Below are positions 29,165 to 36,219 of a stretch of DNA of 64,000 nucleotides, in pieces (positions within the stretch are counted from its first letter, which is position 1; each line of letters starts with the position of its first letter). The notes under the pieces are model-generated. The model worked only from the letters and a program-made list of their open reading frames with translations. It did no database searches and was not told the DNA's origin. The stretch covers positions 288,001 through 352,000 of the forward strand of contig CM000153.2 in the NCBI GenBank assembly GCA_000004695.1, written 5' to 3'. The DNA is from Dictyostelium discoideum. Taxonomy: Eukaryota. The translations under genes were made by a program, and so were the position numbers.

Positions 29165-29460
29165 CTGAATTATTCAATTGCCAAACCAAATTTACATTTT
29201 CTACAACTTTGAGTATGATCACCGTCCAATGTTGAAGCCATCAATTTAATTGGTAGTGTAATAGGTAACAAATCCAAAGTATGAGTACGATTCTTCTTGT
29301 CCAATTGATCCAAACCATCAATGACCAAAAGTACTTGAGTGATTTCATCACCAATAAACATTCTTATTACTATTATTATTATTACAACGATAATCATCAC
29401 CAATAAACATTCTATTGGTTCAATAGAGTTTACATCTTTGATTCCATATAAACACCTGTA
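29165..29460 (-). repeat. Repeat module R, copy 1 (minus orientation, 3' part), carrying a decayed ORF with a NACHT/NB-ARC-like Walker-B-type motif
   Basis: The reverse complement matches 30880-31060 and 35930-36100. It encodes ...DEITQVLLVIDGLDQLDKKNRTHTLDLLPITLPIKLMASTLDGDHTQSCRKCKFGLAIE. An 18-nt direct duplication, atcaccaataaacattct, is seen at 29346 and 29396. Confidence 0.6.
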
Positions 29461-29629
29461 GATGGTTTCGTGATAAACTAACTAGTTGTTTTAAAAATGT
29501 ACCATCAAAATGAAAAAAAAAAAATGAAAAAAAAAAATAAAAAAAAAAAAAATGAAAAAATAGAAAAAAAAAAAGAAAAGAAAAAAAAAATTTAATTTTT
29601 ACAATTTTCCAAAGATAATTATTTGGCCT

Positions 29630-29729
29630 GTCCCATGCCAAAATTAATATGGCTGCTGAAATTAATATGATAATTTTGGCATGGGACTTATGTCTGCTAG
29701 AATTACCATATTAATTTCAGCAGCCATAT
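29630..29729. repeat. Interleaved inverted-repeat (A-B-A'-B') hairpin element
   Basis: A gtcccatgccaaaatta (29630-46). B atatggctgctgaaattaatatg (29647-69). A' taattttggcatgggac (29671-87), the exact reverse complement of A. B' catattaatttcagcagccatat (29707-29), the exact reverse complement of B. It sits between oppositely oriented copies of modules and satellites. Confidence 0.85.
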
Positions 29730-30099
29730 TAATTTAAGCTTACAAACCACAATTAGTCATCCTTTCCGCTGTTTTTGATGCTCATAAAGATTATCCAACC
29801 AGTGTTGAAATTAAATGAAAAGGATTATTTCGTCATCAAAATCATTAAAACAGCTTTCAAATATTGTAACTTCTTTTTTTTAAAATTTTTTTTATTTTTT
29901 TTAATTGTAAAGGGTTATGGATCGAAAAAACAAATTCATTGCAAATCTGTTGTGTAAATTCATCTTAAAGCACACAAATAAACAATAACAGCAACAACAA
30001 CAAATTCAACAAGTTTATAAAATTTTAATTCAATTGGTGGAAATAATAGGGATAGTATTAACTTAGGTGGAAGATAGTATTGATAGAAATAGAAATAGT

Positions 30100-30265
30100 A
30101 ATAGTGATAGTGATAGTAAAGTGATAGTGATAGTGATAGTGATAGTGATAGTGATAGTGATAGTGATAGTGATAGTGATAGTAATAGTAATAGTAATAGT
30201 AATAGTAATAGTAATAGTAATAGTAATAGTAATAGTAATAGTAACAGTAATAGTAATAGTAATAG
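30100..30265. repeat. (GATAGT)n then (AATAGT)n hexamer satellite
   Basis: Seen directly. Approximately the reverse complement of the 28206-28345 satellite. The flanking motif cgcgggtaaacatgg (30476-90) is the reverse complement of ccatgtttacccgcg at 28082-96. Confidence 0.85.
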
Positions 30266-30601
30266 TACAAACTTCTTGCAATAGGATGGAGGTAGTGCAT
30301 TATTTTTACAAAGAATCTCATCAAGTTCATCTTCTGGAATATCGTCAAAGTGTTCCAACAAATGATTTCTAAAAGCACGTGAAAACACTTTTCTACTACT
30401 ATAAAGATCTGGTGGATTTGAGTTGCGAATAACATAAAGTGTGGGTAGTCTTAAGACTTCTTAGATCTCTGGAATGAATAGTTCGCGGGTAAACATGGTG
30501 TAACATCCCATGATTCTTTCGAAACATCCTATGAAGAATTTCAGATATTACAGATAATCAACTTAAAGAAATGATGAAGAAAAAAAATTAACAAAAAAAG
30601 A

Positions 30602-34400: not shown

Positions 34401-34601
34401 AACGGATGTACCATTAAAATCATAATTATAATATAAATTATCTAAACTTGTTATATTAAATAAATATAAAGGTTGAGTTAATTCAATTTCAACATTACTT
34501 CGAGTTTGAATAATTGATTTAAAGATTGATTGACAATTTAATGTTGTAATAAAAAATAATAACAAAACATTTATTGATAATATTAAATTTGAATAATTCA
34601 T
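31419..34601 (-). CDS. IPT/TIG-like extracellular glycoprotein with GPI-type C-terminus (Tgr-like family), copy 2; intact, 4 exons, ~970 aa
   Basis: Exons 34601..34308 (signal peptide MNYSNLILSINVLLLFFITTLNC; donor CAA|GTAAGT), 34234..33793 (donor A|GTATGT), 33691..32702 (donor T|GTAAGT) and 32605..31419. Phases 0/1/1 are consistent and total 2913 nt. Exons 3-4 carry IPT/TIG-like blocks (NISGNEIFGF..VSISGHFIP....IIGKLEFLNGTICILDYNT...QGKFNIPSGYGNGNFSIYIKDKLVHSNLFTYQPP; PIINSISKIKDGNLKINGDGFLN...IECHSQ...IICQFT) and dozens of NxS/T sequons. The C-terminus SLHSVFSKLVATLFIIISILFQ-stop is a GPI-anchor-like signal. Confidence 0.7.
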
Positions 34602-35280
34602 TCTTTATTATATAATTTTTATTAATAAAATAAAAATTAAATGATTAGAAAAAAAAAAAAAAAAAAAAAATTGTTTTGAAAGGATTATTGAGAATTATTG
34701 GAAAAAAAAAAAATAATAAAAAATAAAATTAATAAAATTAATAAAAAAATCTTAGTAAACTAAGACTGGGGAAGTAAAAATAAAAAAAATAATTAAAATA
34801 AAAAAAAAAAAAAAACTTTTCGGCAATGAAAAAAAATTTCGCAGTTTCCTAGGATTTCAAAAAAAAAATCTTTTTAATGTTTCGTTTTTATAATCCCAAA
34901 AATAGATTTTTTCTTAAAATTACCAGTGCTGAGAACATATTTTTTTTTTTTTAATAATTAAATAAAATAAAATAAAATAAATTAGAATACTCAGTTTTCT
35001 ATATATTCCAATTTGAAATCAAATCAAATCATATCAAATGAAACCAATTTAAATTAATTTAAATCAAATAAAAATAGTGTCATACGTCAAAAAAATAAAA
35101 AAAAAAAAAAAAAATAAAAAAATAAATGCAAGATATCTTTTTTATTTATTTGTTTTTTTTTTTCATAATTAATTTTTGAAAGTTAAATTTTTAAAAATTG
35201 TTTTTTTTTTTATTTTTTTTTTTTTTATTTTTTTTTTTTTATAATTTTCACTTGGGATTTATATTTTTTTTTTTTATTTT

Positions 35281-35690
35281 CCACACACAACATGCTTACA
35301 GATAACAGTTATATATGCATTTAAATATTCATGGACTATATCAAAAATAATAAACATGTTGTACAAAAAAACAAAAAGAGAGAATCAACTACATAAAGAT
35401 TAAATCATTAATTTAATTCAATTGGTAATTGTTTAATAGTTTTATTTTCTGTTATTAATTATAAATTATTATATATTCTAATGGTGATAAATTAATTAGT
35501 TAGCATGAATTTAGATAGACAATGTGTTAATAAAGTTCAACAACCAAAAAATAAACCATCTTCACTTGTTTATATGGAACATCCAATTCAAGAGAATGAT
35601 ATTTTTGTGGTTAGACTTTAGCATAATATATTTGATCAAGAGAGATAGTCAAAGCAATCAAAGAGGTAAACTCTATTGAATCAATAATAA
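35281..35690 (+). repeat. Repeat module L, copy 1 (leader preceding (AAT)n + module R)
   Basis: ~80-85% identical to 40741..41066 (ac.gttatata...catg...gactatatcaaaaaataa...aaagattaaatcattaatttaattcaattggtaatt...ggtgataaattaattagttagc...caaagaggtaa.ctctattgaatcaata). Confidence 0.7.
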
Positions 35691-35762
35691 TAATAATAAT
35701 AATAATAATAATAATAATAATAATAATAATAATAATAATAATAATAATAATAATAATAATAG
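35689..35762. repeat. (AAT)n microsatellite
   Basis: Perfect aat repeats between modules L and R. Confidence 0.9.
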
Positions 35763-36219
35763 TGATGGTAATAATAATAAAAGTAATAATAGTGGCTTCA
35801 GTGAATTAGTTCTTAAATTGAAGAAATTAAAGGTATTCTAGAATTAATGAAATCAATTACTTCGACAACAACAGAAACAACAAAAACAATTACCACTCAA
35901 GAAAGTACTGATTCTTTATGAAATCACTCAAGTACTTTTGATCATTGATGGTTTGGATCAATTGGACACAAGAAGAATCGTACTCATACTTTGGATTAGT
36001 TATCAATTACATTACTAATTAAATTGATGGTTCAAGATTAGATGGTCATCATACTCAAAGTTGTAGATGTGTGCACCAACTGAAAATCATTGTCGCACCA
36101 ATGAAAGTTAAAGATGGTCATAGTTTAATATTGGGTAAATTTGAAGAATTCCTTAACAAATTGGATGAATCTGCAATCAATAATCAAATGTCAATAATAA
36201 TAATAATATTAGAAATTTA
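35763..36219 (+). repeat. Repeat module R, copy 3 (plus orientation)
   Basis: Aligns with 30703..31176 along its whole length and ends with the same ...caaatgtcaataata(ata)ttagaaatttag. It is followed at 36220-36700 by sequence whose reverse complement matches 28860-29170. Confidence 0.65.

Follow-up and report, generated by a model that had tools for sequence, protein, structure and literature searches.

Probable fragments of a TEP1-type pseudogene duplicated with an array gene in Dictyostelium discoideum

The window, a stretch of 64,000 nucleotides whose source is chromosome 4 of D. discoideum AX4, contains an array of related genes, and the array genes DDB_G0283217 and DDB_G0283237 encode hypothetical proteins with no Pfam domain. 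Three homologous copies of a module, R, lie in the spacers of this array: R1 at ~29.2 kb (minus strand), R2 at 30.7-31.3 kb and R3 at 35.8-36.7 kb (both plus strand). Using R2 as the query in blastn against the whole window, R3 was matched at 35815-36214 with 91% identity (407 columns, 13 of them gap columns) and the core of R1 at 29349-29200 (minus strand) with 91% identity over 150 bp; in the aligned bases of the NACHT chunk the identity of R2 and R3 is 96%. The three similar copies reported in an earlier note on this DNA are therefore real, with 91% identical cores, and their peptides (e.g., IEEIKGIPELMKSI, TILHDETTQVLLVIDGLDQLDKKNRTHTLD, DGDHTQSCR and LL(V/I)IDGLDQL) were verified in the sequence. 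The label of a recognition-gene array, used in that note, is not supported by the hypothetical proteins of the array. The three loci stand as given, but their limits had to be corrected: the high-identity core of R1 is confined to 29200-29349 (minus strand), and R2 and R3 run on to ~31300 and ~36690. The flanks of R1 are more diverged than its core (29056-29140 is 86% identical to R3 36311-36396; 28911-28999 and 29360-29443 show 68% and 76%). An (AAT)n microsatellite, supposed to precede every copy, is present before R2 and R3, but only an (ATT)4 remnant was found at R1 (29372-29383). Similarly, module L directly precedes R2 alone (30266-30540) and not two copies; of a second L copy a 60-bp remnant is left (74%; 28047-28106), ~0.8 kb past the distal limit of R1 (28911), and R3 is preceded by a module other than L (35218-35690).

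Table 1. Positions in the window of the R pieces and of associated features
Feature	Position	Strand	Evidence or remark
(AAT)29 run	30618-30704	+	immediately upstream of R2 chunk 1; poly-Asn tract in TEP1 frame
R2 chunk 1, probable end of TEP1 TROVE/vWA (DUF5920) module, FSELILKLIAERV...IEKIEEIKGIPEL	30711-30845	+	tblastn, H. album TEP1 residues 637-682, E 0.002
R2 chunk 2, second half of NACHT domain	30892-31167	+	tblastn with H. album TEP1 residues 1092-1185, 37% identity, E 5e-15; TEP1 HMM E 4e-9
Mini-ORF DDB_G0283225 (Q54RG6)	30988-31173	+	annotated; inside R2; ORF identity match to Q54RG6
R2 chunk 3, LAPTLAKLFEGILD, with tail of ~50 bp	31175-31296	+	tblastn, TEP1 1215-1232
(AAT) run, 26 units, R3 equivalent	35683-35760	+	upstream of R3
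R3 chunks 1 and 2	35777-36214	+	blastn 91% to R2; alignment; tblastn E 1e-5
R3 chunk 4: helical-domain end, 'NKAQIKDSCKQN' linker, ~2-3 frameshifted WD40 blades	36311-36690	+	tblastn with H. album TEP1 residues 1455-1595, E 0.015
R1 relic, chunks 1 and 3 deleted	28911-29364	-	tblastn E 4e-9 and 0.17; HMM 36.9 + 6.1 bits, 0/200 shuffles
R1 NACHT chunk 2, without stop codon (Walker B 29302-29331)	29206-29337	-	
R1 linker chunk 4	29021-29141	-	
R1 WD40 remnant	28911-28999	-	
Mini-ORF DDB_G0283221 (Q54RG8)	29173-29361	-	annotated; on R1; ORF identity match to Q54RG8
Lone 30-bp chunk 3 remnant	41836-41865	-	blastn 90% to 31211-31239; adjoins HDAC-like relic

A profile built from the R fragments of the window was searched against 1.84 billion representative proteins. 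Apart from the two mini-ORFs of AX4, it matched only five NACHT proteins (E 5.5e-7 to 9e-4), all of the TEP1 type (telomerase-associated protein 1, the vault minor protein; TROVE-DUF4062-NACHT-WD40). The best match was EFA74759 of Heterostelium album, a protein of 2401 aa with TROVE, DUF5920, DUF4062, NPHP3_N/NACHT, APAF1_C and WD40 domains. In tblastn with this protein the chunks were found in order across the copies (residues 637-682, 1092-1185, 1215-1232, 1430-1445/1479-1502 and 1455-1595), and an HMM of 17 TEP1 sequences matched the six-frame fragments with E 5e-11 to 9e-6. Frameshift-tolerant chains scored 66.4 bits in R2, 43.0 in R1 and 32.8 in R3 (local shuffles: 6.4 bits at most). The minor chunks are weak singly (tblastn E 0.002 to 0.17) and the copies are mutually non-independent, so that the weight lies on the collinearity and on the shuffle controls, in which every minor chunk outscored all 200 shuffles; chance similarity was rejected on this evidence. 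R is thus very probably a non-functional relic of a TEP1-type gene (TROVE/vWA, TIR-like DUF4062, NACHT ATPase, helical domain, WD40 propellers), although the identity of its best chunk to known TEP1 proteins is only 35-38%.

The order of the pieces is that of TEP1: the vWA end, the NACHT Walker B followed by sensor 1 and 'KLDExxxNNQM', then 'LPxLxxxIL', 'NKPxxxDxCKxT' and the first WD40 blades. From the TROVE/vWA module only the last ~46 residues are recognisable (GFSxxILKxIAER...IEKIxxxK); chunk 1 of R2 reached 10.1 bits with the TEP1 HMM (maximum 0 in 200 local shuffles), and ~49 bp of it are deleted in R3. Chunk 2 of R2 shows the Walker B LLVIDGLDQL (30898-30927), a sensor-1-like LMVSRLDG (30988-31008) and KLDES..NNQM, and the Walker B of R3 reads LLIIDGLDQL (35935-35964). 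The TEP1 family-specific motif IDGxDQLxxxNxxxSLDWLP is kept in R as IDGLDQLDKKNRTHTLD(L/W)LP; 'LDLLPI' is read in R1 where R2 (30958-30960, in frame) and R3 (35997-35999) have a TAG stop. The WD40 propellers and the preceding NKPxxxDxC linker are present in R3 (36311-36690) and R1 (28911-29141) with 2-3 frameshifted blades left, seen in a three-frame view of R3 as TRDGSKIACW, NSIIHIFKASNGSEL, CHSNWIS, SSWDDTVIVWD and HGNTVVTIAHIKWD. Chunk 4 of R3 scored 7.4 bits in the frameshift-tolerant chain (shuffle maximum 1.6, none of 200 as high) and, when reconstructed, gave Pfam beta-propeller matches (E 4.7e-5); the WD40/linker part of R1 had a tblastn E of 0.17 and an HMM chain of 6.1 bits (0/200 shuffles). 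The surviving chunks differ by copy: chunk 3 occurs in R2 and also, in a divergent lineage, at the orthologous locus L001 (8877-8933 and 13971-14027), and chunk 4 with WD40 blades in R3 and R1. The tail of R2 (31247-31296) is common to the end of the R3 WD40 relic (36642-36687; 86%, blastn), and the order of chunk 3 and the HDAC-like relic next to its lone remnant is also found in L001 (8877-9093). Upstream of the (AAT)n run of R3, some look-alikes of TEP1 can be seen by eye in 35480-35700 ('NLDRQCV'/'ILDNM', 'NDIFVVRL.H'/'IDNFLVLSH', 'KEVNSIE'/'QEVNPDL'). As a continuation of TEP1 this stretch was rejected (profile and shuffle test, 0 bits).

The hhhhDGhDQ box, which the earlier note had read as the Walker B of a STAND NTPase, is a genuine STAND/NACHT Walker B according to the R profile and the TEP1 HMM, and the similarity persists in a profile search, in which bona fide NACHT proteins are recovered. 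Of the proposed NACHT/NB-ARC class, NACHT proved essentially right, and NB-ARC gave no match at all. R shares with NACHT (PF05729) and NPHP3_N (NWD1/2, NPHP3) the Walker B hhhhDGhD(E/Q) and, ~22 residues on, the hhhh(S/T)(S/T/R) sensor-1 strand; it aligns to positions 48-110 of the Pfam NACHT model, and the P-loop half is absent from it. On the R peptide the Pfam models NACHT, KAP_NTPase and NPHP3_N were all sub-threshold (16-18 bits vs. a cut-off of 26.7), a PDB profile search gave no matches, and the single match of a word-index search with the reconstructed peptide was one decayed orthologue. The earlier note had supposed a STAND class that is rare in amoebozoans, but the class is neither rare nor novel there: the parent belongs to one specific family known before, TEP1, which is conserved among the Dictyostelia (EFA74759 in H. 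album, Q54CB5/DDB_G0293070 in D. discoideum). The intact TEP1 of D. discoideum is expressed and vault-associated (PMC13100048), and its TIR-like domain has NADase activity (bioRxiv 10.64898/2026.09.21.753143). By its locus tag, DDB_G0293070 should lie on a different chromosome from R.

Compared to TEP1, R is without TROVE, Walker A and the TIR-like DUF4062 (TeTIR), keeps little of the helical domain and almost none of the WD40 repeats, and has stops, frameshifts and three local copies within the spacers of another gene family. Between the vWA end and Walker B ~410 residues are missing, including DUF4062 (deleted in all copies) and Walker A, and the gap from chunk 1 to chunk 2 is just 46 bp. 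In the window there was no six-frame match to the DUF4062 and Walker A regions of the TEP1 HMM and no match to the TROVE core, and the Walker A pattern GxxxxGK[ST] is absent from every frame of 27900-31450, 34650-36820 and 40050-41910. Frameshifts had been claimed for every copy; they are present in R2 and R3 (the latter with a 2-bp insertion within 35959-35975 and more small indels), but R1 retains an uninterrupted 103-codon ORF (29173-29481), which counts against a pseudogene, though it is truncated by deletions on both sides. The variable sites fall on the three codon positions as 7, 10 and 5, and this lack of a third-position excess, together with the stops, frameshifts and copy-specific deletions, points to neutral decay. 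That the copies are non-functional is supported by the stops, the indels and the missing P-loop half: with Pfam scores below the cut-off, stops and frameshifts in R2 and R3, and a truncated R1, R is pseudogene debris and neither a new nor an active immune-type NTPase. It probably does nothing as a protein, and DDB_G0283221 and DDB_G0283225 (62-63 codons) are presumably accidental open stretches of the pseudogene.

R2 and its gene (30601-34666) are collinear with R3 and its gene (35687-40047), and the inverted unit has gene and spacer modules in common with the tandem units. In both tandem units R lies in the 3' flank of the array gene, and so it does at the orthologous locus L001, where the orthologous R copy adjoins the orthologous gene (91% identity) and has the identical junction of chunks 1 and 2. 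The collinearity in tandem and inverted units and the same position in another lineage indicate segmental duplication rather than transposition, which agrees with the earlier suggestion of a gene fragment hitch-hiking with the duplication unit. The relic lost ~410 codons (from the vWA end to Walker B, so that the effector domain and the P-loop were gone) before the local duplications, and was then located in the 3' spacer of the lineage-specific array gene. Gene and spacer were duplicated into the tandem units (30.6-34.7 kb and 35.7-40.0 kb) and the inverted unit (25.9-29.5 kb), with R copied passively, and each copy afterwards shed different further pieces and gained its own stops and frameshifts. 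This corresponds to unprocessed (duplicated) pseudogenes in segmental duplications, whose copy number and divergence follow the neighbouring genes and which show neutral decay and copy-specific deletions, although for R the in situ decay of a whole gene is also conceivable. The other proposal, a composite mobile element with a captured piece of a gene that landed beside the array genes, has to be regarded as extremely unlikely. Such an element would fit the presence of several R copies on both strands, next to microsatellites and other repeated modules (U, L), but each copy shares collinearity of at least 4 kb with the neighbouring gene, the position of R relative to the 3' end of the gene is constant in the tandem units and the orthologous locus, and the copy boundaries differ by deletions, without shared termini. 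Furthermore, the spacers showed neither a transposase nor a reverse transcriptase nor terminal repeats, no transposase-like Pfam match was obtained with the spacer ORFs tested (the minus-strand ORF LPTLYVIRNS... of module L, 30266-30460, and several others had no Pfam match), and the only AX4 matches of the R profile among the representative proteins were the two ORFs of the window.

It is possible, though rather doubtful, that R is not a partial copy of DDB_G0293070 but what is left of a second TEP1/NWD-like STAND gene, formerly functional at this locus, which would be an ancient paralogue that the D. discoideum lineage has lost. R looks old, because it is just 35-38% identical to TEP1 in a block where the TEP1 proteins are, by eye, far more alike; the relic also covers the greater part of the TEP1 domain order, which would be expected if a whole gene had decayed in place, and it is older than the split from the L001 lineage (9-12% divergent). 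However, low identity can be explained by neutral decay alone, no remnant of TROVE, DUF4062 or Walker A was found in the window, and a neighbourhood comparison of the window with the TEP1 locus of H. album revealed no synteny. We consider it very unlikely that the R ORFs or the inverted pair of R1 and R2 are functional, be it as micro-proteins or by giving double-stranded RNA from which small RNAs are made. AX4 has two annotated ORFs here, the 150-nt inverted arms (R1 29200-29349, minus strand; R2 30880-31029, plus strand) are 91% identical, and they enclose a full-length mir-7131 precursor hairpin (29646-29732), which is close to the point of symmetry between the inverted genes; yet a third-position substitution bias is absent, the ORF starts are internal Met codons of a truncated domain, and the lesions of R2 are not the same set as those of its L001 orthologue. 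Co-transcription of the arms into double-stranded RNA, yielding small RNAs that act on the functional TEP1 (DDB_G0293070), seems at least as unlikely; if true, small RNAs from a pseudogene would here control a TIR-like NADase/NACHT protein associated with vaults.

As a TEP1-type relic, R reveals no new or active immune-type receptor, and its main value lies in annotation: DDB_G0283221 and DDB_G0283225 (Q54RG8, Q54RG6), and likewise their counterparts in newer assemblies (ACTFIW_007531, ACTFIT_006894), are best taken for TEP1 pseudogene fragments and not for orphan proteins. The spacers of this fast-duplicating array, which is specific to the D. discoideum complex, contain remains of at least two unrelated genes (TEP1-like and HDAC-like), and these relics are markers for the order of the tandem and inverted duplications. 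TEP1 has lately been recast as a STAND protein with TIR-like NADase, NACHT and WD40 parts, so that the additional, dead copy in a social amoeba adds a minor data point on the turnover of the family.

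Across the Walker B region, a frame-corrected 156-residue peptide of repeat module R (copies R1 at about 29.2 kb on the minus strand, R2 at 30.7-31.3 kb and R3 at 35.8-36.7 kb on the plus strand) gave Pfam matches that were all sub-threshold (NACHT, E 0.0027 and 18 bits, cut-off 26.7; KAP_NTPase, E 0.0043; NPHP3_N, E 0.025). Profile A3 was built from the exact window fragments; an HMMER search of 1.84 billion representative proteins with it retrieved seven: two mini-ORFs of AX4 and, beyond these, only NACHT proteins (five). The NACHT-like reading that the earlier note gave the Walker B motif was right in kind. 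The top match, Heterostelium album EFA74759 (P0004; 2401 aa, E 5.5e-7), has the architecture of TEP1, the telomerase-associated minor vault protein: TROVE, DUF5920, DUF4062, NPHP3_N/NACHT, APAF1_C and numerous WD40 repeats. The remaining matches scored above the Pfam NACHT cut-off. R reads QVLLVIDGLDQLDKKNRTHTLD(L/W)LPITLPIKLMVSRLDGDHT...KLDESA.NNQM, the counterpart in P0004 being KIFLFIDGIDQLAAKNSALSLDWLPLSSPVKIVLSTMEGDHT...RLDDSPANNQL and that in a further protein, P0007, LDGLDQLDKSNRAHSLDWLP; the match is specific. With a 17-sequence TEP1 HMM, six-frame fragments of the window and of L001 (a locus of another D. discoideum-labelled assembly, GCA_054859355.1) matched at E 5e-11 to 9e-6. No synteny was found between the H. 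album TEP1 locus and the window.

The tblastn matches to P0004 lie in order along the window and are treated here as four chunks in TEP1 order (vWA end; NACHT from Walker B onward; LPxLFxxIL; linker and WD40).

Features of the window, with matching P0004 residues where available
Feature	Window position (strand)	P0004 residues	Evidence
vWA module end	30711-30845	637-682	tblastn E 0.002
NACHT from Walker B onward	30892-31167	1092-1185	tblastn E 5e-15
LPxLFxxIL	31175-31228	1215-1232	tblastn E 5e-15, joint with preceding row
Helical end and linker, R1	29141-29021 (-)	1430-1445 and 1479-1502	tblastn E 0.17
Linker and WD40 blades, R3	36321-36644	1455-1595	tblastn E 0.015
R3, match to R2	35815-36214		blastn, 91% over 407 columns, 13 gap columns
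R1 core, match to R2	29349-29200 (-)		blastn, 91% over 150 bp
R1 extra pieces	29056-29140, 28911-28999, 29360-29443		more diverged
In-frame TAG	30958-30960 (R2), 35997-35999 (R3)
Module L	30266-30460 (-); 28047-28106		second copy a 60-bp remnant
Module before R3	35218-35690; recurs at 40702-41160
Array genes, e.g.	31419-34640 (-), 36812-40020 (-), 43060-46220 (+)		no Pfam domain
Histone-deacetylase-like relic	41475-41711 (-), 28441-28755 (-), 29733-29815 (+)		PF00850
mir-7131 hairpin	29641-29735		RF03716
Peptide LLLGAGESGKSTIFKQLKILQ	about 19273 (-)		motif

HMM matches chained across frames reached 66.4 bits in R2, 43.0 in R1 and 32.8 in R3 (opposite strand, 0 bits; 200 local shuffles, at most 6.4 bits), and chunk 1 alone (10.1 bits) and the downstream parts of R3 (7.4) and R1 (6.1) each exceeded 200 of 200 shuffles. 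Across frames, R3 at 36360-36690 reads NKAQIKDSCKQN / TRDGSKIACW / NSIIHIFKASNGSELL / VCHSNWIS / SSWDDTVIVWD / HGNTVVTIAHIKWD / LSISLW, parallel to WINKPQSQDACRMT...SQDGTRIACASRDCTVRIFDASTGAEI..LVGHSNWV...SWDNSVKIWD...GHTRAVNAVRFSPDG...TIRIWD in another compared protein, P0005; the WD40 reconstruction matched beta-propeller families in Pfam (E 4.7e-5). About 410 parent residues (the TIR-like DUF4062, Walker A and the first half of NACHT) are absent from every copy: only 46 bp separate chunks 1 and 2, no TEP1 HMM match covers the missing region, and no GxxxxGK[ST] was found in any frame of the spacers. Because the junction between these chunks is common to R2, R3 and the L001 orthologue, the deletion is older than the duplications. 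R is a collinear TEP1 relic with an internal deletion.

The three homologous copies claimed earlier are real, with cores 91% identical to R2 by blastn, and the peptides quoted for them are found in the window sequence; R2 in fact extends to about 31300 and R3 to about 36690. Frameshifts had been claimed for every copy, which holds for R2 and R3 (several indels and an in-frame TAG in both) but not for R1, which keeps an open frame of 103 codons and is itself truncated on both sides. Likewise, (AAT)n precedes R2 (29 repeats) and R3 (26 repeats) but is reduced to an (ATT)4 remnant in R1, and module L, a separate spacer repeat said to precede two copies, precedes only R2. Its minus-strand ORF (LPTLYVIRNSNPPDLYSSRKVFSRAFRNHLLEHFDDIPEDELDEILCKNNALPPSYCKK), which continues into (GATAGT)n/(AATAGT)n repeats, has no Pfam match. 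Of two AX4 proteins of 62-63 residues, DDB_G0283225 (Q54RG6) exactly matches a translation of R2, and DDB_G0283221 (Q54RG8) one of R1; the window accordingly belongs to chromosome 4 of AX4 or of a strain almost identical to it. A literature search for DDB_G0283225 found no mention. Decay has been neutral and has differed between the copies (variable sites of the NACHT chunk at codon positions 1, 2 and 3: 7, 10 and 5). R1 lacks chunk 1 and R3 has lost part of it, chunk 3 is kept in R2 and at L001 8877-8933 and 13971-14027 (with a 30-bp remnant at window 41836-41865), and chunk 4 with WD40 blades is kept in R3 and R1; the ancestral relic was therefore fuller than any copy today.

The copies sit in the spacers of a paralogous gene array in both orientations (about 25-55 kb; window G+C 22.8%). 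The stretches 30601-34666 (R2 and its neighbour gene) and 35687-40047 (R3 and its gene) are collinear and represent a tandem duplication in which R flanks the gene on its 3' side; the 25.9-29.5 kb unit is an inverted copy sharing gene and spacer modules, and L001 has an orthologous gene with an orthologous R (91% identity). Of the two origins proposed earlier, a fragment hitch-hiking with the duplicated units and a composite mobile element, the former fits: R is collinear with the array gene and no element-like termini or transposition genes were found in the spacers. R thus spread passively, by segmental duplication. The label "recognition-gene array" is not established. The members have neither a Pfam domain nor a tgr annotation; they are a lineage-restricted, rapidly duplicating family whose only homologues, among them DDB_G0283217, DDB_G0283237 and ACTFIR_009931, are hypothetical proteins from D. 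discoideum and "D. cf. discoideum".

The same spacers carry a second pseudogene relic, unrelated to TEP1 and histone-deacetylase-like ("...GLVCAVIDS..RPPAAHHA..." and "...AYKPQLVILSAVFDAHKDYP"), also present at L001 8930-9433 (+). PF00850 matched one window ORF at E 1.4e-4 and, over two collinear stretches, the L001 frame minus stops at E 2.5e-5. A TEP1 chunk 3 remnant immediately precedes this relic both in L001 and at 41.5-41.9 kb of the window. The hairpin, whose 41-nt arms are 93% complementary and enclose a 13-nt loop, matches the mir-7131 microRNA precursor over its full length (96.1 bits against a gathering score of 74, E 1e-20), the window's sole Rfam match. It is situated close to the symmetry centre of an inverted gene pair (27914 and 31400). 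The 20-kb L001 locus lacks it, window homology to L001 starting right after it, at 29736, and it looks like a miRNA hairpin that arose where an inverted duplication turns around. Window 55.1-61.9 kb (pyruvate kinase, an EF-hand gene and eIF2B-epsilon) is collinear with L001 (1-6388 against 61863-55162) at only 88-92% identity even across these housekeeping genes, far beyond ordinary within-species divergence, which suggests that GCA_054859355.1 represents a cryptic sister lineage. Upstream of the array and unrelated to R, the peptide LLLGAGESGKSTIFKQLKILQ resembles, by its motif alone, a G-protein alpha-subunit P-loop.

The likely D. discoideum TEP1 orthologue, Q54CB5 (DDB_G0293070), was recovered by MVP proximity labelling of vaults (PMC13100048), and the DUF4062-type domain before NACHT in TEP1 is a TIR-like NADase, active in the D. 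discoideum protein (2026 preprint, bioRxiv 10.64898/2026.09.21.753143). The STAND class of R, earlier held to be rare in amoebozoans, is thus already known and conserved in Dictyostelia, and R is an ordinary TEP1-derived pseudogene relic carried along by a duplicating gene array.
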